A stretch of 64,000 bases of DNA from an uncultured Collinsella sp. (GCA_959026725.1 CAUFMG010000002.1:119067-183066), one strand, 5' to 3'; shown: positions 3,382 to 52,255, numbered from the stretch's first letter. Translations and numbers: made by a program. Notes: generated by a model from the letters alone, not told the origin.

Positions 3382-3449
3382 ACTTGCGGTGAAATAGCTC
3401 CGATCTGGGGCATCAACCAGCCCATCCAGGAACTATTCCACCGCAACTT
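3382..3449. repeat. ~70-bp palindromic intergenic element, copy 1
   Basis: Arms aacttgcggtgaaatag / ctattccaccgcaactt. Related copies lie at 7522-7589 and 48221-48290. Confidence 0.85.
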
Positions 3450-3468
3450 CGTTTTTGATGCCCCGCCC

Positions 3469-7505: not shown

Positions 7506-7521
7506 CCACATCCTCCTCATC

Positions 7522-7589
7522 AGTTGCGGTGAAATACGGACTGCTGGGCCCAATAAACCCGGCAAACAGTCCCTATTCCACCGCAACTT
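7522..7589. repeat. ~70-bp palindromic intergenic element, copy 2
   Basis: agttgcggtgaaatacggactg / cagtccctattccaccgcaact, followed by attttgg. Confidence 0.85.
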
Positions 7590-7659
7590 ATTTTGGGGGA
7601 GGGGATGCACGGCAGGCATACAATGGATGTCGTTGTGTTGAGCTTACCGGGAGGCTGTT

Positions 7660-11497: not shown

Positions 11498-11594
11498 TCC
11501 TTAGGGACGCAACACATCAGCCCACCGACCCAAGCATTATGAGTGGGGCGCGCCGGCCAACGGCAACCCTGGCTGCCCCAAAGTCACCGCAGGC

Positions 11595-11722
11595 CGCGCC
11601 GCCAAAGGCCAGGCGCAAGCTTTTCGTAGATTCCGCACGAGCCGAAGAGCACTAAATGTGCTTTCCGAGCGAGCCCAGGACCTGACCGAGCGGAAACCTT
11701 GCGCCTGGCCTTCGGCGGCGCG
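11595..11722 (+). repeat. long-hairpin element, divergent copy D
   Basis: 25-bp outer stem cgcgccgccaaaggccaggcgcaag / cttgcgcctggccttcggcggcgcg. It encloses the core ttccgcacg..agcactaaatgtgctttccg..caggac, shared with copies at 22584, 24600 and 41881. Confidence 0.8.
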
Positions 11723-14515: not shown

Positions 14516-22489
<7,974 letters not shown>

Positions 22490-22556: not shown

Positions 22557-22750
22557 AGGAACGTTGCCCCGACGAGCACGTCGGATTCCCGGAACGGGCC
22601 GCCCGCTGTTTAAGTTTGTCGCGAGTTCCGCACGCAAAGGAAAGCACTTAATGTGCTTTCCGTCTTGCGCAGGACTGTAGAGCAGCAAACTTAAACAGCG
22701 GGCGGCCCGTTCTGGGAATCTGCCCCCGCGCACAGAAGGGGATTCCTTTT
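22557..22750 (+). repeat. long-hairpin element, copy A
   Basis: Hairpin 22584-22720 includes a perfect 27-bp stem gaacgggccgcccgctgtttaagtttg / caaacttaaacagcgggcggcccgttc. The core is identical to copy B. Confidence 0.9.
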
Positions 22751-22756
22751 GCCAAA

Positions 22757-22868: not shown

Positions 22869-23393
22869 GTGATTATGGAAGAACAAGCATTTAGACAGGC
22901 GGTCGAAGATCACCGGGATGTCGTGTTTCGGATCGCATTGACGTACCTACGCGATCGTGCCGATGCCGACGATGTTGCCCAAGATGTCTTTCTTAAGTTG
23001 CTCAAAAGCGATGGACACTTTGATAGTTGGGAGCATCTTCGTCGCTGGCTTATTCGGGTCACGATCAATGAATGCAAATCGCTCTTTCGAAAGCCATGGA
23101 GGCGCATAGAGGATATTGAGAACTTGGCCGATTCACTCTCGGCAGCGCAGGATGAGACCAAGGTGGTCCTGTCAGACGTTATGCGACTTCCGGAACGATT
23201 CCGTGTTCCCATCGTGCTCTATTACTATCTAGGCTTTTCGACCTCAGAGATTGCCGAGTTGTTGCATGTACCAGCCGCGACCGTTCGAACGCGTTTAGCT
23301 CGCGGTCGATCGAAGCTCAAATTCATCCTAGAGGAGGGCGACCGTGAAATCCAATCAAATCAAGCAGGCCTTCGAGTCCATCCAAGCCGATAG
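22869..23393 (+). CDS. ECF-type sigma-70 family RNA polymerase sigma factor
   Basis: Region 2 (DDVAQDVFLKLL, RWLIRVTINE) and region 4 HTH (STSEIAELLHVPAATVRTRLARGRSKL). ATG 22875 is also possible. Confidence 0.85.
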   Translation: MIMEEQAFRQAVEDHRDVVFRIALTYLRDRADADDVAQDVFLKLLKSDGHFDSWEHLRRWLIRVTINECKSLFRKPWRRIEDIENLADSLSAAQDETKVVLSDVMRLPERFRVPIVLYYYLGFSTSEIAELLHVPAATVRTRLARGRSKLKFILEEGDREIQSNQAGLRVHPSR

Positions 23394-24420
23394 CAATCTT
23401 GCAGATCGCGTCCTTAATACCGCTGCGGGTGAGCCGCTTCATCGAAAGGGCCACGCGAAGCCTCTCTATGTTGCCGTAATCGGATGTCTTGTCGGAGTGC
23501 TGGCGACCGGAGGGGTCGCCTACGCCGTCGTCAATTCCAGATATTTTGCCTCAGCCTGGGGAAACCACGGCAACGGGGATTCCATTACCTGGACCAACGG
23601 TGGCTCATCGGGGACTAAATACACCTACACCAGAGAGTTTGGTGATGGCATCGCGCCCCAAAGCCTGGAGGGTGCAGTTCAGAAAGTTAATCTGTCCGTC
23701 GAGGGTAACGGCTATACGCTCGATATCCATGAGATGGCTATTGACCAAAACGGCTGCGGCGCCGTGACGTTTACGTTGTCAAATCCAAATGGAGTTAACT
23801 ACTACAAGCCAGCAGCAGAGATTGGCGAACTTGTTCTCTATGGTGAAGAAGAGCAGGGCATCGGCACGCCCGATATGAAGTTCGGCGAGGAATGGCCTGA
23901 CACACGCAGCACAATTGATAAGGACACATCAAGCGATACTGTCATTAATGGCACGATGTACTTTGCCGCTATGGATCGCGAGCGAGATTTGCAACATGCT
24001 GTCACCTGGAATATCCATTGGACCGAGGGTGAAGGTGAGAGTGCGAGGCGGTTTGAGGCGTCGACACCCGAGTTCAATATTGGAGCGTACGTCGATACAA
24101 AGGAACTCCGCTCCGGTGACTCGCCTCTTGAGATTAGCCCGTTTTCCATCCAGACGCACATCGATGGTTTGGGCTATGAAGCAGTTGATAATAAGCTGAC
24201 CGTCAGCTACAAGGATGGATCGGAGCAGATTATCGAAGATGACGACGCAGGGGTGTTCAACTTATATTTTTCTTATGGGCGCAATAGCGGAGAGAACATC
24301 TGGGTGCCAACGAAGTTGATTGATGTCGATCAAGTTGTCTCGGTAACCCTTGAAATTGTGAGGTATACATCAACAGGGGAGACCGAAACGAAAGAGCCCT
24401 TTACCATCGTCTATTCGTAA
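23344..24420 (+). CDS. putative membrane anti-sigma factor (single TM, extracytoplasmic domain)
   Basis: GTG start after GAGGAGGG, overlapping the sigma gene by 50 nt. Short N-terminal cytoplasmic part, one TM (LYVAVIGCLVGVLATGGVAYAVV) and a large C-terminal domain. Confidence 0.55.
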   Translation: MKSNQIKQAFESIQADSNLADRVLNTAAGEPLHRKGHAKPLYVAVIGCLVGVLATGGVAYAVVNSRYFASAWGNHGNGDSITWTNGGSSGTKYTYTREFGDGIAPQSLEGAVQKVNLSVEGNGYTLDIHEMAIDQNGCGAVTFTLSNPNGVNYYKPAAEIGELVLYGEEEQGIGTPDMKFGEEWPDTRSTIDKDTSSDTVINGTMYFAAMDRERDLQHAVTWNIHWTEGEGESARRFEASTPEFNIGAYVDTKELRSGDSPLEISPFSIQTHIDGLGYEAVDNKLTVSYKDGSEQIIEDDDAGVFNLYFSYGRNSGENIWVPTKLIDVDQVVSVTLEIVRYTSTGETETKEPFTIVYS

Positions 24421-24525: not shown

Positions 24526-24568
24526 CGTTTCCCCAGATAAAACCGACCAAAATAAACCTGTCCCTATT
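24526..24568. repeat. right inverted repeat bounding the sigma cassette / dispersed ~46-nt motif
   Basis: gacgtttccccagataaaaccgaccaaaataaacctgtccctatt recurs at 52509-52555 with about 3 mismatches. Confidence 0.85.
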
Positions 24569-24571: not shown

Positions 24572-24766
24572 AAGGGAACGTTGCCCCGACAAGCACGTCG
24601 GATTCCCGGTCCGGGCGGCCCGCTGTTTAAGTTTGTCGCGAGTTCCGCACGCAAAGGAAAGCACTTAATGTGCTTTCCGTCTTGCGCAGGACTGTAGAGC
24701 AGCAAACTTAAACAGCGGGCCGCCCGGGCCGGGAATCCGCCCCCGCGCACAGGAGGGGATTCCTTT
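24572..24766 (+). repeat. long-hairpin element, copy B
   Basis: Hairpin 24600-24738 with a 36-bp stem and 1 mismatch. Direct repeat of copy A. Confidence 0.9.
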
Positions 24767-24822
24767 TGTGTAGGCTTTGCGGAAATATGGCTATTTTGGG
24801 ATACGCCCGGCGGCGTGGTCTG

Positions 24823-24851
24823 TTGACGGCACAGCTAACGCCACGTATCCT
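24823..24851 (+). promoter_or_regulatory. candidate rpsL promoter
   Basis: TTGACG, 17 nt, TATCCT. Confidence 0.5.
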
Positions 24852-24944
24852 ATCGAACTGCGTGTTTCGTAGGGGGATGCTGACCCCTCGATTCAAGCCG
24901 TTGCACTTTACAGAAAGCTGGAATCATTCGAGAAGGAGTACGCT

Positions 24945-25889: not shown

Positions 25890-27989
25890 ATGGCTAAGCC
25901 TAAGTACAAGCTTTCCGATACCCGTAACATCGGCATCATGGCCCACATCGATGCCGGTAAGACCACCACGACCGAGCGTATTCTTTACTACACCGGTAAG
26001 ACCCACAAGATCGGTGAGGTCCATGAGGGCGCTGCCACCATGGACTGGATGGTTCAGGAGCAGGAGCGCGGCGTAACCATTACCTCCGCTGCTACCACGT
26101 GCTTCTGGAAGAAGGACGGTACCGACTACCGCATCCAGATCATCGACACCCCGGGCCACGTTGACTTCACCGCCGAGGTCGAGCGCTGCCTGCGCGTCCT
26201 CGATGGCGCTGTCGCCGTCTTCGACGCCGTTGCCGGTGTTCAGCCCCAGTCTGAGACCGTTTGGCGTCAGGCTTCTACCTTCAACGTCCCCCGCATCGCC
26301 TTCATCAACAAGTATGACCGCGTGGGCGCAGACTTCTTCAACGCTATCGAGACCATGAAGGATCGTCTCGACGCCAACGCCGTGGCCGCTCAGGTCCCGA
26401 TGGGCGCCGAGGACAACTTCTGGGGCGTCATCGACCTCGTCACCATGACTGCTTGGGACTTCAAGGCCGACGACAAGGGCATGACCTACCCCGAGCCGAT
26501 GGACGAGATCCCGGCTGAGTTTGCTGACATCGCTGCCACCAAGCGCGAGGAGCTCCTCGACGCTGCTGCCAGCTTTGACGACGAGCTCATGGAGAAGATC
26601 CTCATGGAGGAGGACTTCACCGTCGAGGAGCTCAAGGCTGCCCTGCGTAAGGGCGTTCTGGCCAACGAGCTCAACCTCGTCTTCGTGGGCTCCGCCTACA
26701 AGAACAAGGGCGTTCAGGAGCTGCTCGACGCTGTCGTCGACTACCTGCCCAGCCCGCTCGACGTTGAGGCCGTCACCGGTACCGATCCGGATACCGGCGA
26801 GGAGATCCAGCGTCATCCTTCCTTCGACGAGCCTTTCTCCGGCCTGGTCTTCAAGATCATGACCGACCCGTTCGTCGGTAAGCTCACCTACGTCCGCGTT
26901 TACTCCGGCCGCGCCGAGTCCGGCTCCTACGTGGTCAACGCTTCCAACGGTCAGCGCGAGCGCCTCGGCCGCATCCTCGAGATGAACGCCGCCGAGCGTA
27001 TCGACCGTGACGACGCTGCCGCCGGCGACATCGTCGCTTGCGTCGGCTTCAAGAACTCCACCACCGGTGACACCCTGTGCGCCGAGGGCAAGGAGATCGT
27101 CCTCGAGAAGATCGAGTTCGCTAAGCCCGTTATCGACGTTGCCATCGAGCCCAAGACCAAGGCCGAGCAGGACAAGATGTCCCTGGCTCTGACCAAGCTC
27201 GCCGAGGAGGACCCGACCTTCCAGGTGTCCACCAACCACGAGACCGGCCAGACCATCATCGCCGGCATGGGCGAGCTGCACCTCGAGATCATCGTCGACC
27301 GTCTGCTCCGCGAGTTCAAGGTTGACGCTAACGTTGGTAAGCCCCAGGTTGCCTACCGCGAGACCGCTGGTCACGACGTCGAGAAGGCTGAGGGCAAGTT
27401 CGTCCGTCAGTCCGGCGGTCGCGGTCAGTACGGTCACGCCGTCATCAAGCTCGAGAAGATGGAGGAGGGCTTCGGCTACGAGTTCGTCAACGCTATCGTC
27501 GGCGGCGTCGTGCCTAAGGAGTACATCCCGTCCATCGACAAGGGCATCCAGGAGGCCCTGAACACCGGTGTTATCGCCGGCTTCCCGGTCCTCGACGTTA
27601 AGGTCACCCTGTTCGACGGTTCTTACCACGAGGTCGACTCCTCTGAGGCCGCCTTCAAGATCGCCGGTTCCATGGCTATCAAGGACGCCCTCAAGAAGTC
27701 CGATCCGCAGCTGCTCGAGCCGATCATGGCTGTCGAGGTCGAGACCCCCGAGCAGTACATGGGCGACGTTATGGGCAACCTCTCCGGTCGCCGCGGCAAG
27801 ATCGAGGGCATGGAGGATCGCAAAAACAGCAAGCTCATCCGTGCCAAGGTGCCGCTGGGCGAGATGTTCGGTTACGCTACCGACCTTCGCTCCCAGACCC
27901 AGGGCCGTGCATCCTACACGATGCAGTTCGACTCTTATGAGCCCGCGCCCAAGTCCATCGTGGACGAGGTCATGAGCAAGAATGCCTAA
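25890..27989 (+). CDS. fusA: elongation factor G
   Basis: [15 protein letters not shown] and DTPGHVDF GTPase motifs; full-length EF-G. Confidence 0.97.
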
Positions 27990-28049
27990 GTTCGAGCTCC
28001 CTGTTACGTAATCCGCGAGAACATCTCTCGCACTCTTTGGAGGTTTAAG

Positions 28050-28358
28050 TTGGCTACCCAGAAGATCCGCATTCGCCTCAAGGGCTATGATCACGAGGTC
28101 GTCGATCAGTCCGCGAAGCTCATCGTCGAGACCGCTCAGAAGACCGGCGCTCGCGTTTCCGGTCCTGTCCCCCTGCCCACCGAGCGCAACCTGTACACGG
28201 TTATCCGCTCGCCGCACGTGAACAAGGACTCCCGTGAGCAGTTCGAGATGCGCACTCACAAGCGCCTCATCGACATCCTCGACCCCACCTCGGGCACCGT
28301 TGATTCGCTCATGCGTCTCGACCTCCCCGCTGGCGTCGACATCGACATCAAGCTCTAA
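28050..28358 (+). CDS. rpsJ: 30S ribosomal protein S10
   Basis: [12 protein letters not shown]...[13 protein letters not shown], with a TTG start. Confidence 0.95.
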
Positions 28359-28377
28359 GCGATATCGCTCATAGCTT

Positions 28378-28415
28378 AAAGGGCCCCGCTGCCGTTACGG
28401 TAGCGGGGCCCTTTT
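28378..28415. terminator. bidirectional terminator between rpsJ and birA
   Basis: aaagggccccgct / agcggggcccttt stem with A and T runs on both sides. Confidence 0.85.
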
Positions 28416-28474
28416 GTTTAGCATGATGGGATTGGACCGCCGGATAAGGCTGCCGAGCGGCTGGCTGTGGCGCC

Positions 28475-29251
28475 CTATTCGCTCGCGGGACGCAGCGATG
28501 CCTCCTCAAAATGGAAGGATCGCAAACCGCCTTCCGTTTCGATACACGCGCGACCAAAGCCATCGACGGTTTTAAAGATGCCGCGTGCTAGCTCGTCGCC
28601 GGCAGGGGAACGGGCGATAACGTGCTCCCCAATCCAATTGAGGTGAGTGACATATTCGCCGTGGACGGGCGCGAGCGGTCCGCCGTCTTCTTCCATGGCG
28701 TTAAGACGCTCTGCCCACGCATCTACAGCGTCTATAACTGCGTGATAGACCTCATCGAGGAGCATGTTGACGGTGGGAACGCTCTCGTTAAGGTCCGAGA
28801 GGCCAATTGCCGCCAGACCGCCATCGGGTACCTCTTGGGGCGTGTAGTTTACGTTGACGCCAATGCCGCAGACGGCGAAGGGCTTGCCTTCGTTATCGCG
28901 TGCGGCCTCGACCAGAATGCCGCCGAGCTTGCGTCCTCGCGCGACAAGGTCGTTGGGCCATTTAAGGTGAATCTCGTTTGCAAGACCCTGCTTTTCGAGT
29001 GCTTCAAGCACCGCTAGGCCGCTGACGGCGGCAAGACCAGAGAACTTTGCAGGATTAACGCATGGGCGCAGGACAATCGAAAGCAATAAGTTGCCGACGG
29101 TTGAGTCCCACTTGTGCCCGCGCCGGCCGCGTCCTGCTGTTTGAGCCCGGGCGGCAAGTCCTGTGCCGTGCGGCGCTCCCTGTTTTCCTGCTTCGAGCAG
29201 GTCATCGTTGGTCGATCCGGTTACGTCGACTATCGTTAATTTGGCATCCAT
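28475..29251 (-). CDS. birA: biotin--[acetyl-CoA-carboxylase] ligase (class I, no HTH domain)
   Basis: GRGRRGHKW biotin-binding motif. At 258 aa it has no N-terminal repressor domain. Confidence 0.85.
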   Translation of the reverse strand: MDAKLTIVDVTGSTNDDLLEAGKQGAPHGTGLAARAQTAGRGRRGHKWDSTVGNLLLSIVLRPCVNPAKFSGLAAVSGLAVLEALEKQGLANEIHLKWPNDLVARGRKLGGILVEAARDNEGKPFAVCGIGVNVNYTPQEVPDGGLAAIGLSDLNESVPTVNMLLDEVYHAVIDAVDAWAERLNAMEEDGGPLAPVHGEYVTHLNWIGEHVIARSPAGDELARGIFKTVDGFGRACIETEGGLRSFHFEEASLRPASE

Positions 29252-29349
29252 AACGGTTGCTACCTCCTAAGTTAATAAGGCAATCGCGTAATGGTGTCGA
29301 GAGATAGACACAATGTGAAGCCTTTGTCGCATTTGGACAATTTAATGTT

Positions 29350-29411
29350 AACACGTCAACAACGACTAAAATGCGCTATCCTCTCTTGGTCGATGTAAAC
29401 ACGTCAACAAC
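29350..29411 (+). promoter_or_regulatory. 14-nt perfect direct repeat aacacgtcaacaac x2 upstream of fabH; candidate operator
   Basis: 29350-29363 and 29398-29411, 48 nt apart. The second copy ends 16 nt before the fabH ATG. Confidence 0.3.
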
Positions 29412-29427
29412 TCAAAGGAGGCTAGTG

Positions 29428-30387
29428 ATGGGTTTCACGATTCTTGGAACAGGCTCGGCGCTTCCTGAGCGCAGTGTTTCCAATGACGAGCTGTCTGAGT
29501 TCCTCGATACCTCGGATGAGTGGATTTTTACCCGCACAGGTATCAAGAGCCGCCACGTCTGTACCACCGAGTCACTTGACGACCTTGCCGTAGCGGCGAG
29601 CGAGCGGGCACTCCAGGTGTCCGGAATCGACGCGAGCCAGCTGGATCTGATCGTTTGCTCGACGACGACGGGTGACCACCTTGTTCCCGCTGAGGCGTGT
29701 GCCGTTGCTGAGCGACTAGGAGCGGCGTGCCCTGCCTTCGATGTCTCGGCGGCCTGTGCCGGCTTCGTGTTTGCGCTCGATGTCGCCGAGGGCTATATCG
29801 AGCGCGGTCGTGCCGAGCGCGTGCTTATCGTTGCTGCTGAGCAGATGACGCGCGCGCTCGACTGGACCGACCGCGCCACCTGCGTGCTCTTTGGCGATGG
29901 GGCAGGCGCCGCAGTGATTGGGGCTGGGGGAGACAGCCCCCTTGCCGTTGAGCTTTCGACGGCGCCCGACGTCGAGACGTTACACGTTCCCGGTCTGGTC
30001 GGCACCTCGCCGTTTAAGGCTTCCGCAGATAGCGCGAGCGTGCTGTCCATGAATGGCCGCCGCGTGTTCAAGTTCGGCGTCAACGCCATCTGTGACACGG
30101 TCCATAAGCTTGCGATCGATGCGAGCATTTTGGTCGAAGACATCGATCATTTTGTATTCCATCAGGCTAACGAACGAATCCTGAGCCAGGCGGTCAAGCG
30201 TCTGGGCGTGCCGGACGAGCGTGTGGTTCGCACGTTGCGCGAGACCGGCAACATTTCGAGCGCATGCATTCCGCTTGCCCTCGACCGGCTGGCAAACGCC
30301 GGTGCACTTCACACGGGCGACACGATCGCCTTGGTTGGATTTGGCGCCGGTCTGGATATAGGTGGCTATCTGCTTCGTTGGAAGTAG
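29428..30387 (+). CDS. fabH: 3-oxoacyl-ACP synthase III
   Basis: Trimmed to the ATG at 29428 after AAAGGAGG. AACAGF Cys site, and FHQAN / GFGAG motifs. Confidence 0.9.
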   Translation: MGFTILGTGSALPERSVSNDELSEFLDTSDEWIFTRTGIKSRHVCTTESLDDLAVAASERALQVSGIDASQLDLIVCSTTTGDHLVPAEACAVAERLGAACPAFDVSAACAGFVFALDVAEGYIERGRAERVLIVAAEQMTRALDWTDRATCVLFGDGAGAAVIGAGGDSPLAVELSTAPDVETLHVPGLVGTSPFKASADSASVLSMNGRRVFKFGVNAICDTVHKLAIDASILVEDIDHFVFHQANERILSQAVKRLGVPDERVVRTLRETGNISSACIPLALDRLANAGALHTGDTIALVGFGAGLDIGGYLLRWK

Positions 30388-30438
30388 TCGCACATAGGAA
30401 ATAAAAACGCCCTAGGGCACAACCAAAGGAGAACTACC

Positions 30439-30675
30439 ATGGCAGATCAGAAGACCTTCGAGCGCGTTTGCGACGTTATCCGCGAGACCGCTGGTCTTGA
30501 CGACGTTGAGATGAAGCCCGAGTCCACGCTCGAGGAGATTGGTCTCGACAGCCTGGGCACCGTCGAGATCCTCGTCGCCGTCGAGGACGAGTTTGGCATC
30601 CAGCTCGATACCGAGGAGAACCCCAAGACGGTCGGCGAGTTCGCCGATACGGTCGAGGCGGCATTGGAGAAGTAG
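30439..30675 (+). CDS. acpP: acyl carrier protein
   Basis: 78 aa with the LGLDSL phosphopantetheine site. Confidence 0.9.
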   Translation: MADQKTFERVCDVIRETAGLDDVEMKPESTLEEIGLDSLGTVEILVAVEDEFGIQLDTEENPKTVGEFADTVEAALEK

Positions 30676-30677
30676 AG

Positions 30678-31622
30678 ATGCTCAAGACTCCTCTCTGCGA
30701 TCTGCTCGGCATCGAAAAGCCCGTGTTCCAGGGCGGTATGGCCTGGATTGCCGATGCCTCGCTGGCGTCCGCAGTGTCCGAGGCGGGTGGCTTAGGCATC
30801 ATTGCGGCCATGAACGCCGACGCCAACTGGCTGCGCGACCAGATTCACGAGCTGCGCGCCAGGACGGATAAGCCCTTTGGCGTCAACGTCATGCTCATGA
30901 GCCCGTTCGCCGACGAGGTTGCACAGGTCGTGATTGACGAGCGAGTGCCGGTCGTCGTGACGGGCGCCGGCAATCCCGCCAAGTACATGAAGGCGTGGAA
31001 CGAGGCGGGCATCAAGGTCATCCCGGTCGTTGCCTCGGTGGCGCTGGCGCGCCTCGTGGCACGTCGTGGAGCCACGGCGGTTGTTGCCGAGGGTACCGAA
31101 TCGGGCGGCCATATTGGCGAGACCTCGACGATGGCACTGGTGCCGCAGGTCGTCGATGCGGTTGACATTCCCGTCGTGGCCGCCGGCGGTATTGCCGACG
31201 GCCGCGGCGTGGCGGCCGCCTTTATGCTGGGCGCCGAAGGCGTGCAAGTGGGTACGCGCTTTCTGGTCGCAGACGAGTGCACCGTCTCGGAGCAGTACAA
31301 AGAGATGGTCCTGAAGGCCAACGACACTTCAACGCGTGCGACCGGTCGCTCGACGGGACATCCAGTGCGCGCCCTCAAGAGCCCCTTCACCAACGCCTAT
31401 GCCAAGAGCGAGGGTTCCGGCGCGAGTGCCGAGGAGCTCGGTGCTATGGGAACCGGTGCGCTGCGTAAGGCCGCCAAGGACGGCAACTACGAAGAGGGTT
31501 CGTTTTTGTGTGGACAGATTGCCGGCATGGTTAGCGAGCGCCAGAGCGCACGCGAAATCGTTGACGATCTGGTCGATGGCGCCGAGCGCGTCCTGAAGGG
31601 TGCGTCCGCATGGGTAGCGTAG
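30678..31622 (+). CDS. fabK: enoyl-ACP reductase II (FMN-dependent, FabK type)
   Basis: Near-colinear by eye with streptococcal FabK: PVFQGGMAWIAD, GAGNPAKYM, AEGTESGGHIG, AAGGIADGRG. Confidence 0.8.
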   Translation: MLKTPLCDLLGIEKPVFQGGMAWIADASLASAVSEAGGLGIIAAMNADANWLRDQIHELRARTDKPFGVNVMLMSPFADEVAQVVIDERVPVVVTGAGNPAKYMKAWNEAGIKVIPVVASVALARLVARRGATAVVAEGTESGGHIGETSTMALVPQVVDAVDIPVVAAGGIADGRGVAAAFMLGAEGVQVGTRFLVADECTVSEQYKEMVLKANDTSTRATGRSTGHPVRALKSPFTNAYAKSEGSGASAEELGAMGTGALRKAAKDGNYEEGSFLCGQIAGMVSERQSAREIVDDLVDGAERVLKGASAWVA

Positions 31623-32536
31623 CGTTTCTGTTTGCCGGCCAGGGTGCCCAACACCCCGCGATGGGCGTCGACCTGATCGAGACATCGCCGGCGGCCGCCG
31701 AGGTGTTCACCATTGCCGACGAGGTGCGCCCGGGGACGAGCGAGCAGTGCCGGAGCGCCTCCAAGGAGGAGCTCTCGCAGACCGAGAACACGCAGCCTTG
31801 CGTGTTCGTGCACGACTTGGCTGTCGCCGTCGCCCTGCGCGAGCGCGGCGTGGTGCCTGCCGCCTGTGCGGGATTCTCGCTGGGCGAGGTCGCTGCACTC
31901 AGCTTTGCGGGGGCATTCGATACGCGAGCGGGTTTTGAGCTCGTGTGTGAGCGCGCGGCATTGATGGCCACGGCGGCCGAGCGTCACCCTGGCGGCATGC
32001 GCGCCGTCATCAAACTTGATGCTGCGCAAGTCGAGAACCTGGCTGCGCAGGCCGGCGAGGACTGCTGGCCGGTCAACTACAACAGTCCCCAGCAGACGGT
32101 TGTGGCCGGAGCGCCCGATGCGCTGCAGACCCTCGACGTCCTAGTAAAAGAGGCTGGCGGCCGCGCCATGAAGGTCGCGGTGTCGGGTGCATTTCATAGC
32201 CCCTATATGGCCGAGGCGACCTGTGGCCTTGCCGCATATATTGAGGCCGGTCACGCGCCGTCCCCGTTGCTCATTCCTGTTTTGGCAAATATGACAGCGG
32301 CGCCCTATCCGGCGGACCCCCAGACGGCATCGGATGTCTTGGCCAATCAGGTGAGCAATGCCGTGCGCTGGGTCGATACGCTGCATGCTCTGCAGGATCA
32401 AGGCATCGACACATTTATTGAGGTCGGCCCCGGCAAAACGCTGTCCGGCCTGATCAAGCGTACGTTGAGCGACGTTCGTGTGTATTCGTGCGAGACGGCC
32501 GAGCAGGTCGCAGCTATTGCCGACGAGCTCGCATAG
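31610..32536 (+). CDS. fabD: malonyl CoA-ACP transacylase
   Basis: FAGQGAQ and GFSLGE active-site motifs. Confidence 0.9.
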   Translation: MGSVAFLFAGQGAQHPAMGVDLIETSPAAAEVFTIADEVRPGTSEQCRSASKEELSQTENTQPCVFVHDLAVAVALRERGVVPAACAGFSLGEVAALSFAGAFDTRAGFELVCERAALMATAAERHPGGMRAVIKLDAAQVENLAAQAGEDCWPVNYNSPQQTVVAGAPDALQTLDVLVKEAGGRAMKVAVSGAFHSPYMAEATCGLAAYIEAGHAPSPLLIPVLANMTAAPYPADPQTASDVLANQVSNAVRWVDTLHALQDQGIDTFIEVGPGKTLSGLIKRTLSDVRVYSCETAEQVAAIADELA

Positions 32537-32566
32537 TCCACAGGGCTGTAACCCGAAAGGAATGAC

Positions 32567-33340
32567 ATGGGCAACTTGAACAATGGCGCGCTCGAGCGCA
32601 ACGACTCACGTCGCGTGGCACTGGTCACGGGCGGCTCGCGGGGTATCGGCCGCGCCTGCGCTATCGGTCTGGCGGAGGATGGCTACGATATCGCCGTCGT
32701 CTATGCCGGCGGCGTCGATGCGGCGCGCGAGACGTGCGACGCCTGCGAGGCGGCTGGCGCCACGGCGCGCTCATATCAATGTGACGTGGCCGACCCCGCT
32801 GCCGTCAACGCGTGCGTGGAAGCGGTCCTCAACGACTTTGGCTCCATTTGGGCGCTCGTCAACAACGCTGGCATCACCCGCGATGGCCTGCTCATGCGCA
32901 TGGGCGATGACGCCTTCGATCGCGTGCTCGATGTCAATCTTAAAGGAACGTTTAACACGACGCGTGCGCTCACCAAGACCTTTATGCGCCAGCGCGGCGG
33001 CTGCGTCGTCAACATGAGCTCGGTTGTGGGCCTGATGGGCAATGCCGGGCAGGCCAACTACGCTGCCTCCAAGGCGGGCGTGATCGGCCTGACCAAGGCG
33101 GTGGCGCGCGAGCTTGCGCCCCGCGGTGTACGAGTGAACGCGGTCGCCCCCGGGTTTGTCGAGACAGATATGACGGCAAAGCTCTCGGAGAAGGTGTGTA
33201 CGGTAACCGAGGAGCAGATTCCCCTTAAGCGTATGGCGCAGCCCGAAGAGGTGGCCGGTGTGGTGCGATTTTTAGTGAGCGATGCGGCTGCCTACATTAC
33301 GGGCGAAGTCGTACGCGTCGACGGCGGAATGGCGATGTAG
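32567..33340 (+). CDS. fabG: 3-oxoacyl-ACP reductase
   Basis: SDR motifs: TGGSRGIGRA, NNAG and YAASKAG. Confidence 0.9.
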   Translation: MGNLNNGALERNDSRRVALVTGGSRGIGRACAIGLAEDGYDIAVVYAGGVDAARETCDACEAAGATARSYQCDVADPAAVNACVEAVLNDFGSIWALVNNAGITRDGLLMRMGDDAFDRVLDVNLKGTFNTTRALTKTFMRQRGGCVVNMSSVVGLMGNAGQANYAASKAGVIGLTKAVARELAPRGVRVNAVAPGFVETDMTAKLSEKVCTVTEEQIPLKRMAQPEEVAGVVRFLVSDAAAYITGEVVRVDGGMAM

Positions 33341-33376
33341 AAACCAGGGCCGAAGAACGGCTTGGATGAGGAGACC

Positions 33377-34627
33377 ATGATGGAACAGAGAGTTGCAATC
33401 ACCGGTATCGGTGCCGTGTCGCCGCTCGGCAACACCGCGCTTGCCACCTGGGCGGCCATGTGCGCCGGCACGTGCGGCATCGGCCCGATCACGCACTTCG
33501 ATACCGATGCGTTTGCCGTCAAGGTGGCAGCCGAGGTCAAGGGCTTTGACGGCAACGAGTACTTTGGCAAGCGTGACGCCAAGCATCTCGACCCCTGCGT
33601 TCAGTTTGCGATGGCGGCTTCGGACGAAGCCATGCACGATGCGGGCTTTGATGTCGAAGGCGCCATCGATCGCGAGCGCCTGGGCGTCTACGTGGGCTCG
33701 GGCGTGGGCGGCATGACGACGCTCGTCGACAACGTCCATACGATTGCCGAACGTGGGCCCCGCCGCGCATCGCCCTATATGATCGCGATGATGATCCCCA
33801 ACATGGCATCGGGCAATATCGCAATCCGCCACAAGGCAAAGGGCCCGACCCTGCCCGTGGTGACCGCGTGCGCAACCTCGGCCCATGCGGTGGGCGAGGC
33901 GTTCCGCGCCATCAAGCACGGCTATGCCGACGCGATCCTCGCGGGCGGCGCCGAGGCTGCAATTATCCCCGATGCCGTTGCGGGCTTTACGTCCTGCCGC
34001 GCATTGACCACCAACCCCGATCCCGCGACGGCCTGCCGTCCGTTCGATGCAGACCGCGACGGCTTTGTGATGGGCGAGGGCGCCTGCGTGCTGGTACTCG
34101 AGAGCATGGAACATGCGCAGGCGCGCGGTGCGCACATTTATGCCGAGGTCGTGGGCTACGGCAACACCGATGATGCCTATCACATCACGAGTCCTGATCC
34201 CGAGGCTGCCGGCATTGCCCGCGCGATATCGCTGGCGGTGACCGAGGGCGACGTCAAGCCTTCCGAGGGTCTCTACATCAATGCCCACGGCACATCGACC
34301 AAGCTCAACGATTCGTCCGAGACGACGGGCATTAAGCGTGCGCTCGGCGAGGACGCGGCGCGCGCCGCGCACGTCTCGTCGACTAAGTCGATGACCGGCC
34401 ACATGATCGGTGCCACGGGCGCCATCGAGGTCATGGCCTGCGCCATGGCGCTCGAGCAGGGCGTGGTGCCGCCGACCATTAACTACCACACGCCCGATCC
34501 CGCCTGCGATCTTGACTACACGCCCAATCGCGCGGTTCGCGCCGACCTTACCTGGGCGCTTTCGACCAACCTGGGCTTTGGCGGACACAACGCCGCCATC
34601 GCGCTGCGTAGATATACGAGGAGCTAG
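33377..34627 (+). CDS. fabF: 3-oxoacyl-ACP synthase II
   Basis: KAS I/II motifs (ACATSAHA, NAHGTST, FGFGGHN). ATG 33377 or 33380 follows GAGGAG. Confidence 0.9.
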   Translation: MMEQRVAITGIGAVSPLGNTALATWAAMCAGTCGIGPITHFDTDAFAVKVAAEVKGFDGNEYFGKRDAKHLDPCVQFAMAASDEAMHDAGFDVEGAIDRERLGVYVGSGVGGMTTLVDNVHTIAERGPRRASPYMIAMMIPNMASGNIAIRHKAKGPTLPVVTACATSAHAVGEAFRAIKHGYADAILAGGAEAAIIPDAVAGFTSCRALTTNPDPATACRPFDADRDGFVMGEGACVLVLESMEHAQARGAHIYAEVVGYGNTDDAYHITSPDPEAAGIARAISLAVTEGDVKPSEGLYINAHGTSTKLNDSSETTGIKRALGEDAARAAHVSSTKSMTGHMIGATGAIEVMACAMALEQGVVPPTINYHTPDPACDLDYTPNRAVRADLTWALSTNLGFGGHNAAIALRRYTRS

Positions 34628-34630
34628 AGC

Positions 34631-35104
34631 ATGGATTCCAAAAGACTTGCCGAGATAGCCGATGTTATGGAGAACCGCGGCCTCACGCGCGTACGCGTTG
34701 AGGAGCCCGATGGCACCGCGGTCGAACTCGAGCGCGCGAGCGCCGCACAGCCGGTTGCCGTGCCCATGCCCATGCCGAGCGCTATAGCCACTCCAGTTGC
34801 AGCTCCCACAGTCGCGCCTGCCGCACCGGAGCCCGCCGCGCAGGCGCCTGCCGCCGCACCGGAGCCCAAGGGCACCGAGGTGACCGCTCCCATGGTCGGC
34901 GTGTTCTATGCTGCCCCGGCGCCGGGCGACGAGCCGTTTGTGCACGTGGGCTCCAAGGTCAAGGCCGGCGAGACCCTCTGCATCATCGAGGCCATGAAGG
35001 TTCTCAACGAGGTGACGGCCGAGGCGGATGGCGAGGTGCTCGAGATCTGCGTGGCCGACGGCGACCTCGTGGAGTTCGGCAGCTGCCTCATGAGGATCGG
35101 ATAG
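34631..35104 (+). CDS. accB: acetyl-CoA carboxylase biotin carboxyl carrier protein
   Basis: Ala/Pro linker and the CIIEAMKVLNEV biotinyl-lysine motif. Confidence 0.85.
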   Translation: MDSKRLAEIADVMENRGLTRVRVEEPDGTAVELERASAAQPVAVPMPMPSAIATPVAAPTVAPAAPEPAAQAPAAAPEPKGTEVTAPMVGVFYAAPAPGDEPFVHVGSKVKAGETLCIIEAMKVLNEVTAEADGEVLEICVADGDLVEFGSCLMRIG

Positions 35105-35536
35105 GTGATATCCATGAACAAAGAAGAGCTCAAGAAGCTGTTACCGCATCGCGAGCCGATGCTTTTGCTCGACGAAGCCGAGCTGGTGGGCGACGAGGCC
35201 CACGGCAAGATCACGATTACGGGCGACGAATACTTTTTGCAGGGGCATTTTCCGGGAAACCCGGTGGTCCCCGGCGTGATCCAGTGCGAGATGCTCGCCC
35301 AAAACTGCTGCGTGCTGCTGATGGGCGATGAGGAGGCGCGCGGCGCGACGCCGTTCTACACGAGTCTGGACAAGGTGCGCTTTAAGCGTCCGGTGCGCCC
35401 GGGCGACACGGTGGATCTGGTGTGCTCCATCACGCGTGCGCGCGGGCCGTTCCGCTTTGCGACGGGTACCGCGAGCGTCAACGGTGAGGTTTGCTGCCGC
35501 GCCGATATGTCTTTTGCACTCATGCACGAAAGTTAA
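35105..35536 (+). CDS. fabZ: 3-hydroxyacyl-ACP dehydratase
   Basis: LPHREPMLLLD and FLQGHFPGNPVVPGV motifs. ATG 35114 is an alternative start. Confidence 0.9.
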   Translation: MISMNKEELKKLLPHREPMLLLDEAELVGDEAHGKITITGDEYFLQGHFPGNPVVPGVIQCEMLAQNCCVLLMGDEEARGATPFYTSLDKVRFKRPVRPGDTVDLVCSITRARGPFRFATGTASVNGEVCCRADMSFALMHES

Positions 35537-35546
35537 GGAAGGCTCC

Positions 35547-36890
35547 ATGTTCGACAAAGTGCTCATCGCCAACCGCGGCGAAGTCGCGGTCCGTGTTATC
35601 CGCGCGTGCCGCGATATGGGCATCAAGACCGTCGCTGTTTATTCCACGGCCGATGCGGACGCGCTGCACGTGCAGCTTGCCGACGAGGCGTATTGCATCG
35701 GTGGCCCGCGTCTTGCCGAGAGCTACCTCAACGACGATGCTGTGCTCACCTGTGCCGTAAAGTCGGGAGCTAAGGCAATTCATCCCGGCTATGGCTTCTT
35801 TTCCGAGAAGGCGAGCTTCGTGCGCGACTGCGACAAGTATGGCCTGGCGTTTGTTGGTCCTTCGGCCAAGGTGATCGACAGCATGGGCGACAAGGACGCC
35901 GCACGTCGAACGGCTGCCGCGGCGGGCGTGCCCATCGTGCCGGGCTGCGATTTGCTCAAAAGCCCCGAGGAGGCAACGGCCGAGGCCGAGCGCATTGGCT
36001 GTCCCGTGCTCATTAAGGCGCGTGCAGGTGGCGGCGGTCGCGGTATTCGCAAGGTCGAGCGCGTGGAAGATGCGGCAAAGGCGTTCATCGAGGCGCGTGC
36101 CGAGGGCGAGGCCGTCTTTGGCGACGGCGAGTGCTACATGGAGAAGTTCGTCGCGCCGGCGCACCATGTCGAGGTGCAGATTATGGCCGATAAGCAGGGC
36201 CATGTGTTTTCGCTTGGCGAGCGCGAGTGCTCGGTGCAGCGTCGCAACCAAAAGCTGATCGAGGAGAGCCCCGCGCCGTGCCTCGACGGACACGACGACA
36301 TTCGTGCTCGCATGCACAAGGCAGCGCGTGACCTGGCTCGTGCCGTCGGCTACGAAGGAGCCGGTACCATCGAGTTCCTGTATTCGGACGACGGCAATTT
36401 CTACTTTATGGAAATGAACACGCGCTTGCAGGTGGAGCATCCGGTTACGGAGTTTGTGACCGATACCGACTTGGTCAAGTGGCAGCTGCGCGTGGCAGCC
36501 GGCCAGCCTCTGCCCTTTGAGCAGGAGGATATGCCGGTCCGCAACCACGCCATGGAGTGCCGCATCAATGCCGAAACGCCGGACTTTCTGCCGTCATGCG
36601 GAACGGTCACCGCGTTGCGTGTGCCGGGTGGTCCGCGCGTGCGCTGGGATTCCGCCATGTTTGCCGGTGCGAAAGTTCCGCCGTACTACGACTCCATGCT
36701 CGGCAAGCTCATCGTGTGTGCGCCCACGCGTGACGGCGCCATTCGCAAGATGCGCTCGGCCCTGGGCGAGCTCGTGATTGAGGGCGTGAGCGAAAACAGC
36801 GAGCTTCAGCTCGACGTGCTGGCAAACGACGAGTTCTTGTCGGGCATGTATCACACCGATCTAATGGGGCATCTCTATGCTGATGAATAG
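35547..36890 (+). CDS. accC: acetyl-CoA carboxylase biotin carboxylase
   Basis: Trimmed to the ATG at 35547. MFDKVLIANRGEVAVRVIRAC, GGGGRGI and EMNTRLQVEHPVTE. Confidence 0.92.
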   Translation: MFDKVLIANRGEVAVRVIRACRDMGIKTVAVYSTADADALHVQLADEAYCIGGPRLAESYLNDDAVLTCAVKSGAKAIHPGYGFFSEKASFVRDCDKYGLAFVGPSAKVIDSMGDKDAARRTAAAAGVPIVPGCDLLKSPEEATAEAERIGCPVLIKARAGGGGRGIRKVERVEDAAKAFIEARAEGEAVFGDGECYMEKFVAPAHHVEVQIMADKQGHVFSLGERECSVQRRNQKLIEESPAPCLDGHDDIRARMHKAARDLARAVGYEGAGTIEFLYSDDGNFYFMEMNTRLQVEHPVTEFVTDTDLVKWQLRVAAGQPLPFEQEDMPVRNHAMECRINAETPDFLPSCGTVTALRVPGGPRVRWDSAMFAGAKVPPYYDSMLGKLIVCAPTRDGAIRKMRSALGELVIEGVSENSELQLDVLANDEFLSGMYHTDLMGHLYADE

Positions 36891-38601
36891 AAAAGCGAAG
36901 ACGGTCAACGTCCTCGAGGGACCGATGACCGAGTCGTGCGCCGAGTTTCCCGCGCGCCACGTGTTTATCAAGTGCCCGGAGTGCCGCCGCGTGATCGATG
37001 AGGCACGCCTGCACGACAACCTCGAGGTCTGCCCTCGTTGCGGCAAACACTTTCGCGTGAGCGGGCGCGACCGCATGCACATGACGATTGACGAGGGCAC
37101 GTTTGAGGAATGGGATGCCAGTCTGGCGCCGGAGGACTTCCTTTCGTTTCCCGGCTATGCCGACAAGCTCAAGAGCGTGAGCGAACGTTCGGGCGAGCGC
37201 GATGCCGTTGTGTGCGGCAAGGGCAAAATCTGCGGTTGCGATACGGCGCTCTTCTTTATGGACGCCAACTTTATGATGGGCTCGATGGGTTCCGTGGTGG
37301 GCGAGAAGATCTGCCGCACATTTGAGCGTGCGACCGAGCTGGGACTGCCGGTCGTTGGCTTTACCGTATCGGGTGGCGCCCGCATGCAGGAGGGCGTGAC
37401 CTCGCTCATGCAGATGGCCAAGATTTCTGCGGCGGTTAGGCGCCATAGCGAGGCGGGCGGCCTGTATATCACGGTGCTCACTGACCCCACGACCGGAGGC
37501 GTAACCGCGAGCTTTGCCATGGAGGGCGATATTATCCTGGCCGAGCCCGATGCCCTGACGGCATTTGCCGGCCCGCGCGTGATCGAGCAGAACATGCACA
37601 AGCGCCTGCCCAAGGGATTCCAGCGCTCCGAGTTTTTGCTGGAGCACGGCTTTTGCGATGCCGTTGTTCCGCGTGGCGAGATTGCGCTCACGGTAGGCGA
37701 GCTGCTGGCGCTGCACGAAGGGCACGCGCCCGGCCTGGGGGCACCGCATGAGATCGTGCATACGGGTCGCCGTGGCAAAAAGCTGGGACACTTGTTCAAG
37801 CGCTCGGCCGCACCAAAAACCGCGCTCGAGATTGTCAAGCAGACCCGCTCGGCAGATCGCGCCACGGCAGGCGAGATGATCTCGCTGGGCCTGGATGGAT
37901 TTGTGGAGCTGCACGGCGACCGCTACTTTGGCGACGACGCCGCTGTGGTGGCTGGCATTGGCTGGAAAGACGGGCGCCCCGTAACGGTCATCGCCATCGA
38001 GCGCGGCACCACGACCAAAGAGCGCATGCGTCGCAACTTTGGCATGGCACATCCCGAGGGCTACCGCAAAGCGCGTCGCCTTATGCGCCAGGCCGAAAAG
38101 TTTGGTCGACCGGTTCTGTGCCTGGTCGATACTTCGGGCGCGTTTTGCGGCATCGGTGCCGAGGAGCGCGGCCAGGGCGAGGCGATTGCTCAGAATCTCA
38201 TGGAGATGAGCGGCCTTAAGACGCCGATTGTCTCGGTGGTGACAGGCGAGGGCGGCTCTGGTGGCGCGCTGGCGCTGTCCGTGGTCGACCGCATCCTGAT
38301 GCTCTCGAGCTCGGCCTATTCAGTCGTGAGCCCCGAGGCCTGTGCGTCGATCCTGTGGAAGGATACCGAGCGTGCGGATGAGGCCGCCGAGGCGCTTAAG
38401 CTCACGGCCCCCGATCTGCTGGCGCTCGGCATCATCGACGGCATTGTTGACGATAAGGGCCTGTCGCATGAGGAGATCGCCGGTGCCGTCATGTCCTCGG
38501 CATTTGATGCCTTCGATACGCTTGGGCAGCTCGACGACGCGACCCTCACAAACCTCCGCTACGAAAAGTACCGCGCAATCGGTCGATACCGCACGATGTG
38601 A
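36877..38601 (+). CDS. acetyl-CoA carboxylase carboxyltransferase, fused beta (AccD) and alpha (AccA) subunits
   Basis: N-terminal Zn ribbon CPECRR...CPRCGKH (AccD). The C-terminal half carries the AccA-like GAFCGIGAEERGQGEAIAQNL. Confidence 0.85.
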   Translation: MLMNRKAKTVNVLEGPMTESCAEFPARHVFIKCPECRRVIDEARLHDNLEVCPRCGKHFRVSGRDRMHMTIDEGTFEEWDASLAPEDFLSFPGYADKLKSVSERSGERDAVVCGKGKICGCDTALFFMDANFMMGSMGSVVGEKICRTFERATELGLPVVGFTVSGGARMQEGVTSLMQMAKISAAVRRHSEAGGLYITVLTDPTTGGVTASFAMEGDIILAEPDALTAFAGPRVIEQNMHKRLPKGFQRSEFLLEHGFCDAVVPRGEIALTVGELLALHEGHAPGLGAPHEIVHTGRRGKKLGHLFKRSAAPKTALEIVKQTRSADRATAGEMISLGLDGFVELHGDRYFGDDAAVVAGIGWKDGRPVTVIAIERGTTTKERMRRNFGMAHPEGYRKARRLMRQAEKFGRPVLCLVDTSGAFCGIGAEERGQGEAIAQNLMEMSGLKTPIVSVVTGEGGSGGALALSVVDRILMLSSSAYSVVSPEACASILWKDTERADEAAEALKLTAPDLLALGIIDGIVDDKGLSHEEIAGAVMSSAFDAFDTLGQLDDATLTNLRYEKYRAIGRYRTM

Positions 38602-38617
38602 CAAAGGGACAGCCCGC

Positions 38618-39856: not shown

Positions 39857-39894
39857 ACCTGTGCGACACAAGGACGATTCCTTTGCCATATTCC

Positions 39895-39930
39895 AAGGCC
39901 GTGGCCCGTGTGGGTTGCGGCCTTTTTTGT
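39895..39930 (+). terminator. intrinsic terminator ending the fab-acc-EIIC unit
   Basis: aaggccg...cggcctt stem plus a T6 run. Confidence 0.7.
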
Positions 39931-40007
39931 ATCTGGGGGACAAAGTGGCTACACTACAATCCGTTTGAGCAATAGATATATAGGTAGTACCGTGGGGGCG
40001 GATGTAG

Positions 40008-41162: not shown

Positions 41163-41201
41163 GGCTGTGCCGGCAAAGCAAGTTATACAGAAGGGGAGAC
41201 T

Positions 41202-41828: not shown

Positions 41829-41880
41829 CTGAGCGAGCAGAGTTAAACAGACATCAACGTGTCGTCTCCCGAGCTTGGCA

Positions 41881-42005
41881 GAGGGGCGGCGAAATATATT
41901 AAGTTTGTCGCGAGTTCCGCACGCAAAGGAAAGCACTTAATGTGCTCTCCGTCGTGAGCAGGACTGTAGAGCAGCAACCTTAATATGTCTCAGGCCCGCC
42001 CCCTC
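41881..42005 (+). repeat. long-hairpin element, copy C
   Basis: The core differs from A/B at about 4 positions. The outer stem is replaced by gaggggcgg...atattaag / cttaatat...ccgccccctc. Confidence 0.85.
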
Positions 42006-48135: not shown

Positions 48136-48220
48136 TATCCCTACTCATTGGGGACAGACTTAAATGAGTGGCCGTTGAGGACGTTCTTAAACGGCTAGTC
48201 ATTTGGGACAGCCTTGTGCT

Positions 48221-48290: not shown

Positions 48291-48329
48291 GGTGAGGTCT
48301 GTGGTAATGCGCGGCAATCGGATGAATGC

Positions 48330-52239: not shown

Positions 52240-52255
52240 GTTGTCTGCTGGTTTG

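Follow-up and report, generated by a model that had tools for sequence, protein, structure and literature searches.

The hairpin-bearing window and its genes

The window, that is the whole stretch of 64,000 nt of Collinsella DNA analysed here, carries four copies of a long-hairpin element, called D, A, B and C in their order along the sequence and all on the plus strand. With genes assigned by Pfam, copy D is flanked by an aminotransferase gene, whose stop codon lies at least 60 nt before it, and by rplJ, whose promoter-like site follows about 40 nt after it. Copy A is located after rpoC and its terminator, and copy C between a histidine phosphatase gene and rplC. Copy B stands between the terminator of an anti-sigma gene and the promoter-like site of rpsL. 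No tRNA or tmRNA gene was found in the window. The features are as follows.

11594-11722, plus strand: copy D, divergent subfamily, covariance model 88.5 bits
11760-11788, plus strand: rplJ promoter-like site TTGACC-17-CATAAT, immediately 3' of D
22585-22719, plus strand: copy A, hairpin proper (repeat unit 22558-22751), covariance model 118.8 bits
22758-22777, plus strand: terminator-like 20-mer AGGGACAGGTTTATTTTGGT, 3' half of a hairpin and T-run
22869-23393, plus strand: ECF sigma factor gene (Pfam), between the direct copies A and B
23344-24420, plus strand: DUF4179 anti-sigma gene (Pfam), between the direct copies A and B
24546-24565, minus strand: terminator-like 20-mer GGGACAGGTTTATTTTGGT, inverted, just upstream of B
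24599-24739, plus strand: copy B, hairpin proper (repeat unit 24575-24768), covariance model 118.9 bits
24823-24851, plus strand: rpsL promoter-like site TTGACG-17-TATCCT, 84 nt 3' of B
41876-42010, plus strand: copy C (core 41899-41983), covariance model 86.3 bits
52531-52549, minus strand: third occurrence of the terminator-like 20-mer GGGACAGGTTTATTTTGGT

Are these four copies clearly set apart from other hairpins? A covariance model built from 41 non-redundant members of the family scored them at 86-119 bits, and all remaining matches in the window reached at most 31 bits. The weak matches fall about equally on both strands, which indicates that they are generic hairpins. Thus the initial annotation was right to place four copies on one strand at these sites, and the window holds nothing else comparable. 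The central 23-mer gave no match in 100 shuffles. The predicted folds reach -116.8 kcal/mol for A (z -11.2 against shuffled sequence), -124.7 kcal/mol for B (z -11.8), -94.0 kcal/mol for D (z -7.7) and -67.7 kcal/mol for C (z -3.5), the weak fold of C being due to its origin as a recombinant of two alleles, described below.

Copies A and B are the centres of a direct repeat. They had been described as sharing an identical core of about 90 nt; the sharing holds, but it extends over 194 nt at 95% identity. The outer helix of each is predicted to run for about 37 uninterrupted pairs, and not for the perfect 27 bp formerly given for A; read by eye, each run contains one G·U. The differences between A and B are compensated changes, and the swapped outer-helix arms that had been noticed in B are indeed C-G to G-C changes of this kind. 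Copy D has its core TCGTAGATTCCGCACG...CAGGACCTGACCGAGCG within a 25-bp helix with one A·C mismatch (by eye); the helix had been called unrelated to the others, and D does form a separate subfamily, but the mismatch inside the helix had been overlooked. Open reading frames in this GC-rich window were scored with a codon-usage model. Coding potential of the antisense ORFs over A and B was rejected on their strongly negative codon scores; the MLSFACGTRDKL ORFs, already taken for repeat artefacts, score -60 and -75, and their compensated-stem pattern is unlike coding sequence.

Some further observations concern the surrounding genes. The rpoC gene (18008-22489) encodes a long beta' subunit of 1493 aa, and its precomputed Pfam matches include PF03118 (RNA polymerase alpha C-terminal domain) as well as the usual Rpb1 domains. 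The str and S10 operons (25890-28358 and 28475-42283) are rearranged, with rpsJ directly after fusA and tuf elsewhere; the gap of about 13.6 kb between rpsJ and rplC holds a biotin ligase gene, a fab/acc fatty-acid cluster, PTS EIIC, a CDF transporter and the histidine phosphatase. A motif GGATACGCCCG(G/C)(C/A)GC(G/C)GTG is common to 24800-24855 and 42066-42100, downstream of B and C and just upstream of rpsL and rplC, and may be a promoter-region element shared by r-protein operons. A cluster of at least three hairpins GTTACAGAT(T/C)GAGA...TCTC(A/G)ATCTGTAAC occupies 240 nt of intergenic DNA at 52240-52480, upstream of the third GGGACAGGTTTATTTTGGT motif.

A conserved centre between free arms

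The anatomy of the element was read from an alignment of 41 non-redundant copies. Its centre of about 70 nt is conserved and asymmetric, an irregular helix whose mismatches and bulges are fixed in place. Invariant within it are TTCCGCACG, the 9-bp apical stem capped by a TTAAT loop, and CAGGAC. Further out follow segments that are unpaired yet conserved, TCGCGAG (5') and GT(AG/CCG)AGCAG (3'). The basal stem, of 9 bp, is conserved in part and covaries (TTAAGTTTG/CAAACTTAA and variants). The outer arms are GC-rich and unrelated between loci, their sequence being locus-specific and even allele-specific, so that the centre is much more conserved than the arms. The whole outer helix has a median length of 35 bp and a range of 22-69 bp, two chimeric copies left out. 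Apart from the covarying basal stem, no terminal inverted repeat is common to all copies, no conserved head tetranucleotide was seen at the arm ends, and no consistent direct repeats at the arm ends would indicate a target-site duplication. When filled and empty sites were compared, at site A and at the dpaL locus, the flanks were found replaced and not duplicated. Identity with a known MITE or REP family, with target-site duplications, had been named as an outcome that would refute the initial annotation; neither such duplications nor common terminal repeats were seen.

Covariation and its spectrum

Pairing in the alignment of 41 sequences is kept in 98.0% of cells, against 75.3% in shuffles and 33-48% with slid partners, and each of the 22 outer pairs varies in both of its partners. 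The earlier description of a conserved asymmetric core within outer stems that pair through different sequences is therefore correct, and the covariation that it proposed to examine is very strong. Then does the covariation speak for a selected RNA structure? The spectrum of changes was derived from a minimum spanning tree over 80 unique arm alleles. On this tree there are 60 fully compensated pair changes, of which 31 are of the transversion type and 29 of the transition type, and 32 one-sided changes. Note that transversion-type double changes, for example C-G to G-C, have no route through a wobble intermediate. Mismatches stand at 50 of 2239 arm positions (2.2%), with G·T (15) about as frequent as A·C (14), and G·U makes up less than 1% of pairs. 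This spectrum is the one expected from copying of arm to arm and not from stepwise compensation in RNA. Among the one-sided changes on the tree edges, G·T outnumbers A·C by 13 to 5, which leans mildly towards what a sense-strand RNA or single-stranded DNA would show.

Judged from the sequences, the arms apparently keep their complementarity by copying at the DNA level and not through selection on RNA. Three papers describe how template switching between inverted repeats homogenises and expands the arms and inverts the spacers (PMC8604942, PMC8794818, PMC13100816). The search for new RNAs has a trap of which this family is a clear case from nature: the covariation is of textbook quality (22/22 pairs), yet its spectrum points to copying at the DNA level. 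The RNA reading offered at first, an RNase III stem or an ncRNA, gains no support from this covariation, and it is further weakened by the lack of a promoter directed into the element and of any Rfam match, both described below.

Alleles upstream of rplC

The rplC locus, compared in ten genomes with an identical L3 protein, allows the changes to be followed at one site. Three alleles occur upstream of rplC, with arms of 27, 41 and 54 bp. Their arms can be aligned and are about 40% different with indels (by eye, on the printed alleles), and every allele pairs perfectly. One allele carries four compensated changes in the apical stem, and the unpaired core segments are identical across the alleles. 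The genes that flank the element differ by 1-11%, the r-protein genes by 1-2% (third positions) and the upstream genes by 5-11%, and the class of the allele does not agree with the phylogeny of the flanks. Copy C itself is a hybrid: its left arm and left half-core are those of allele X1, its right half-core and right arm are those of allele Y, and the junction lies within the apical hairpin. The sequences gaggggcgg/ccgccccctc, formerly taken for an alternative stem of C, thus reflect a hybrid of two alleles instead. The locus is occupied in 10/10 related genomes.

Inversion of the centre relative to the flanking genes was observed in L090 and L102 only (L-numbers are our handles for related sequences), and the comparison of further ortholog groups revealed no other flip. 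The idea that the centre often turns back and forth was accordingly rejected, since it has flipped at one locus only. In L116, L070 and L072 the arms are chimeric, and these copies may be ectopic recombinants or joins made in the assembly of metagenome-assembled genomes.

Distribution of the family

Few genera of the human gut are as prevalent or as rich in species as Collinsella. When GTDB was scanned for an exact pattern, with one genome standing for each species, at least 119 stretches with the element came up, and nearly all of those listed belong to Collinsella or Coriobacteriaceae. About two dozen of the listed matches are cut by a contig end, as expected for a repeat that breaks assemblies. 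The matches listed include 88 full-length copies, which represent at least 25 orthologous loci. One copy lies at a contig end in L021 (CAVHBE010000088.1), binned as Methanobrevibacter smithii; this contig is most likely mis-binned Collinsella.

A census of a whole replicon was made with the covariance model on NZ_OY725717.1, a 900-kb replicon of C. aerofaciens that is syntenic with the window. It holds 13 copies at 10 loci:

census loci: the pair at pnp|rnj; rplC; rpsL; rplJ; upstream of groES
census loci, continued: thrC|thrB; manA|uvrD (two copies); murB; a peptidoglycan-binding gene; the pair at tsaD|cstA

A stretch of 460 kb of this replicon is free of any copy. In the census and in the loci read, the element is a non-coding, multi-copy sequence of 115-200 bp, and every copy is intergenic. 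Several core subfamilies are common to multiple loci, D being the most divergent.

Has such a repeat been recorded before? Rfam gave no match at gathering score in the window, and none overlapping A or B even at E <= 10; the test included the Collinsella-1 family and ribosomal-protein leaders, and no family matched the element. The Rfam search suggested in the initial annotation thus came out empty. A literature search found no paper on a Collinsella repeat, and the family appears to be previously undescribed. Phage origin was rejected, given no blastn match in 50,697 phage records and only 2 real copies on IMG/VR contigs; plasmid origin was also rejected, as the sole PLSDB match is the 900-kb piece of C. 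aerofaciens chromosome labelled as a plasmid. For the assembly, binning and comparison of Collinsella genomes it is of consequence that an undescribed repeat breaks assemblies, marks points of recombination and deletion beside the core operons of transcription and translation, and has accessory genes bracketed between its copies.

Gain, loss and cargo

The window, L130, L132 and L139 have copy A, which is cleanly missing from L131, L133, L134, L135 and L137. In the genomes without it, rpoC is followed by a complete second terminator, of which the 20-mer AGGGACAGGTTTATTTTGGT is part. This presence and absence among strains, with the second terminator in place of A, indicates that A is a recent copy of the whole 194-nt unit of B, arms included; the comparison of filled and empty site A does not show a clean insertion. 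Copy B is present in 8/10 genomes and deleted in two, and in L133 the deletion has an endpoint inside the right arm. Copy D is present in 10/10 related genomes. The far flanks are conserved on both sides at most loci, and most loci are fixed and stable; thus current mobility is low. The idea that the element is a general marker of variable-region boundaries was rejected because of these conserved far flanks.

The YgeY|dpaL locus is filled in L111 and empty in NZ_OY725717.1. At the empty site stands the terminator hairpin of dpaL, 8 nt from the stop codon (GGCGGAG, a 13-nt loop, CTCCGCC), and this sequence can be recognised in the arms that L111 carries at the filled site, in an ambiguous alignment of one filled/empty pair. 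Furthermore, the atypical basal stem TTTGCTCCG of the filled allele matches the native TTTACTCCG. These two observations suggest that the element sits in or beside a host terminator hairpin. As far as one pair of alleles can tell, the element may have been inserted into the terminator loop, or beside the hairpin with inverted copying of the flank.

Two cases of cargo were met. One is the ECF sigma/anti-sigma pair between A and B, whose codon usage is atypical and which one related genome (L136) lacks. At manA|uvrD, in L071 and NZ_OY725717.1, a two-ORF cassette lies between two inverted copies; it has no Pfam match, on which ground an AbiE-type identity guessed by eye in L071 was rejected. Since the flanks are conserved on both sides at most loci, cassette capture is not the general role of the element. 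Two inverted GGGACAGGTTTATTTTGGT 20-mers bracket the sigma/anti-sigma genes, and the motif also precedes the sense copy at pnp|rnj (L003, 2663-2681). Their role as ends of a sigma-cassette transposon was rejected, because the right-hand one is present in L136, which lacks the cassette, and because the motif is half of a terminator hairpin. Another inverted-repeat element of about 200 nt (TTCGGAAGTATGCGGCAAAAT ... ATTTTGCCGCATACTTCCGAA) occurs in the rpoC-rpsL spacer at L136 2400-2620, L134 2400-2560 and L133 2700-2760; together with the presence or absence of the sigma cassette, it makes this spacer a hot spot of structural variation.

Gene context and polarity

The initial annotation had placed the element at boundaries of RNAP and r-protein operons, in the direction of transcription. 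Both features are coincidences of this window. Family-wide the neighbours are ordinary housekeeping and metabolic genes (thrC|thrB, metK|sdaA, manA|uvrD, pnp|rnj, groES, murB, tsaD|cstA and others), so the link with RNAP and r-protein operons is only local, and about a third to a half of the copies are antisense to the nearest gene. Several loci lie upstream of strongly expressed operons (rplJ, rpsL, rplC, groES, rnj). In the census 7 copies are on the minus strand and 6 on the plus strand although genes are mostly minus, so that there is no replication-strand bias; an element specific to one replication strand as ssDNA was rejected on this count.

Is there any rule in the orientation? Tabulated over the family, it is mixed relative to genes, yet polar towards stop codons. 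With the element read in the reader's orientation, stop codons on its 3' side are 15-64 nt away (n = 6) and those on its 5' side 61-623 nt away (n = 8), a difference with p = 0.0007 in the Mann-Whitney test and p = 5e-6 across ortholog groups. Two placements recur, either directly next to the stop codon of an opposite-strand gene or upstream of a co-oriented gene. Doublets are always head-to-head with every copy facing the outer gene, as at pnp|rnj, tsaD|cstA and the group-2 locus.

As for transcription signals, the proposed position between a terminator or 3' end and the next promoter holds in the window for A and B, each with a canonical terminator before it and a promoter-like site next after it; D is found just before such a site. 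Of 112 unique sets of flanks, none has a sigma-70-like promoter directed into the element, and an independent sRNA gene was rejected on that basis. A T- or A-rich tract adjoins the arms at only 3-4 of 90 unique loci. The hairpin is thus not followed by the U-tract of an intrinsic (Rho-independent) terminator, and A and B themselves follow separate canonical terminators.

Origin and role of the element

What is this element? Our leading explanation, to which we give an even chance, is that the four hairpins belong to a non-coding, dispersed palindromic repeat of Collinsella, REP/MITE-like and present in about 13 copies per 900 kb, which seeks hairpins, acts at the DNA level and has arms that evolve in concert, and that they are not a cis-acting RNA of RNAP and r-protein operons. 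Under this explanation the arms would be kept and lengthened by copying one from the other, through intramolecular template switching or gene conversion between inverted repeats, and the same process would account for the single observed flip of the centre. Part of the arm sequence would come from the host terminator hairpins where the element sits, which would make it hairpin-seeking. The lopsided centre would survive homogenisation because a putative trans-acting protein, a mobilising enzyme or a host factor, recognises its folded form; the conserved centre is probably a recognition site of this putative kind. Sharing about 70 nt of homology, the copies would also serve as recombination points, which may have given rise to allele C, the chimeric arms elsewhere and the accessory genes bracketed by two copies. 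Against the DNA-element explanation are the facts that no enzyme or parent element was found, that there is no target-site duplication and that most loci are fixed. Conservation of the core far above that of the arms fits a host function as well as a selfish element, and the stable orientation and gene-end polarity could reflect a role at the level of transcription, hence of RNA.

A role at that level, as a terminator, an insulator or an RNase III stem, is a serious rival owing to the polarity and the stable orientation. The hairpin might be a structured RNA in neighbouring mRNAs, either an orientation-dependent terminator or insulator that does without a U-tract or a stem for RNase III processing or stability; its internal loops would bind a protein and its arms would merely be double-stranded. 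The folds are very stable and the covariation is strong, orientation is kept at nearly all orthologous loci, and the 3' side at 15-64 nt from stop codons of the opposite strand is where a terminator would stand. The head-to-head pairs between co-directional genes (pnp|rnj, tsaD|cstA) resemble back-to-back terminators, the dpaL copy sits at the terminator position of the empty allele, and G·T is in mild excess over A·C among one-sided changes. However, half of the compensated changes are of the transversion type and doubles outnumber singles two to one, standing mismatches are G·T about as often as A·C, G·U is below 1% of pairs, neither side has a U-tract, and Rfam has no match. Moreover, A and B, placed after canonical terminators and before promoter-like sites, should be poorly transcribed, and sense copies 12-23 nt upstream of thrB and sdaA, after a co-directional gene, argue against a simple terminator in that orientation. 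From sequence evidence, then, a structured RNA seems unlikely, at perhaps one chance in a handful. By analogy with REP/BIME sequences that bind gyrase and IHF, the element could instead be a domesticated DNA site of the host, a cruciform or hairpin bound by a nucleoid, topoisomerase or replication factor and no longer mobile. This we consider rather improbable. Near-fixation at orthologous core-genome loci (C in 10/10, D in 10/10 and B in 8/10 genomes), conservation of both far flanks and a core that is invariant while the arms diverged by about 40% would suit such a site, as would the position of several copies shortly before operons of very strong expression (rplJ, rpsL, rplC, groES, rnj), since extrusion would be favoured there by negative supercoiling. 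But no candidate protein was found, some loci are polymorphic (copy A; dpaL, filled in L111 and empty in NZ_OY725717.1), and subfamilies common to several loci together with mosaic elements imply past spread or conversion. The 460 kb of replicon without a copy would also be odd for a general chromosome-structuring site.

The bracketed cargos raise yet another question, whether the element serves site-specific recombination in the manner of attC or dif, as a place of insertion and excision for cassettes of accessory genes. The sigma/anti-sigma pair between the direct copies A and B, the two-ORF cassette between inverted copies at manA|uvrD (L071 and NZ_OY725717.1), and the hybrids with breakpoints in the centre (copy C; the chimeric arms of L116, L070 and L072) would be in line with it. 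Yet at most loci both flanks are conserved and cargo is absent, the copies around the two cassettes differ in relative orientation, no integrase is adjacent, and by inspection the R''/R' core-site consensus of attC is absent. The arms of A and of B are each self-complementary, which a crossover in the centre would not leave, and the hybrids are equally explained by homologous recombination in the sole shared 70 nt or by chimeric assemblies of metagenome-assembled genomes. We regard this possibility as very improbable. To return to the dispersed DNA repeat, a bolder form of that explanation takes the centre of about 70 nt alone as the mobile unit. This centre would always insert in the same orientation, into a host hairpin or next to one (in the typical case a terminator just past a stop codon), and would gain its arms by inverted copying of the flank through a putative structure-specific enzyme ('inverted target duplication'), with fold-back or template-switch synthesis from the flanking host DNA. 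This form is quite improbable in our view; if true, it would be a kind of bacterial mobile element not described before. If the centre of the repeat turns out to be recognised by a protein, the inverted layout, with a conserved centre and free arms, and the strict stop-codon polarity would point to a mechanism of mobilisation or termination not yet described in Actinomycetota.

Comparison with known systems

If the repeat moves, which enzyme could move it? No transposase, RT or integrase adjoins the copies among the neighbours in the window, at the loci of relatives or in the annotated census, in accordance with what had been noted for the window. About 1.9 Mb of Collinsella DNA yielded no autonomous parent IS that shares the ends of the element, ends being compared there for IS200/IS605 tnpA only; copies of IS21, IS30, IS256, IS3, IS110 and IS1595 are annotated in the census as well. 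The IS200/IS605 tnpA of L145, the only Y1 transposase seen nearby, was rejected as a partner because its end hairpins are unrelated to the element. This gene lies between rpsJ and the biotin ligase gene (L145 18230-19110, equal to NZ_OY725717.1 533230-534110), and the matching site of the window, about 28360-28475, has the rpsJ terminator only. A second identical tnpA is at NZ_OY725717.1 422883-423341, and another follows rplL in L172.

The bacterial MITEs (Correia/NEMIS, ERIC, RUP, BOX) share with the Collinsella element a length of 115-200 bp, a non-autonomous nature, intergenic placement, a long hairpin, positions beside promoters and terminators, and presence/absence polymorphism at some loci. 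They differ in having conserved terminal inverted repeats, target-site duplication and an identifiable parent IS, while the termini of the Collinsella element differ at every locus and no such duplication or parent was seen. Of the two readings first offered, the non-autonomous MITE in terminator-promoter gaps is nevertheless the nearer one, with its conserved terminal repeats and target-site duplication removed. An explicit contrast is given by a second repeat family of the window, which has the classical MITE layout. Its three copies (3385-3451, 7521-7590 and 48220-48291) have conserved inverted arms of 22-23 bp (AAGTTGCGGTGAAATAGGGACTG / CAGTCCCTATTTCACCGCAACTT) around a variable centre of about 25 nt, and fold at -34 to -56 kcal/mol.

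Sites that work as folded single strands, such as attC, the end hairpins of IS200/IS605 and single-strand origins of the ssoA type, likewise have conserved bulges, mismatches and loop while the remaining stem is free, and their function is orientation-dependent, as it would be in the Collinsella element. In contrast to them, the copies have no link to an integron integrase, a Y1 transposase or a rolling-circle replicon, and they show no replication-strand bias (7 minus, 6 plus). The attC core sites R''/L''...L'/R' (RYYYAAC / GTTRRRY) are absent from the alignment by inspection, and there are only two cases of cargo, in different relative orientations and with no integrase adjacent. Template-switch mutagenesis of quasipalindromes produces compensated multi-base changes of any type, growth of arms and occasional inversion of the spacer, all of which are seen here. 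It is, however, a mutational process and not an element, and it leaves the conserved centre and the spread to many loci unexplained.

The REP/BIME/REPIN sequences of Proteobacteria, with their RAYT transposases, should be compared last. REPs are 20-40 nt long and conserve the sequence of the palindrome itself, whereas the Collinsella element conserves an asymmetric centre of about 70 nt between long, locus-specific arms. The head motif GTAG/CGTC of REP/REPIN has no counterpart in a conserved head tetranucleotide, and the host is an actinobacterium; in the loci read, no RAYT gene was seen with copies on its two sides. On the other side, both are non-coding, multi-copy and strictly intergenic, often right after stop codons and so near the 3' ends of genes; both occur singly or as inverted pairs with a short spacer, form hairpins with compensated stems and occupy conserved orthologous sites. 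The roles proposed for REPs in termination, mRNA stability and protein binding are likewise those proposed here for the Collinsella element.
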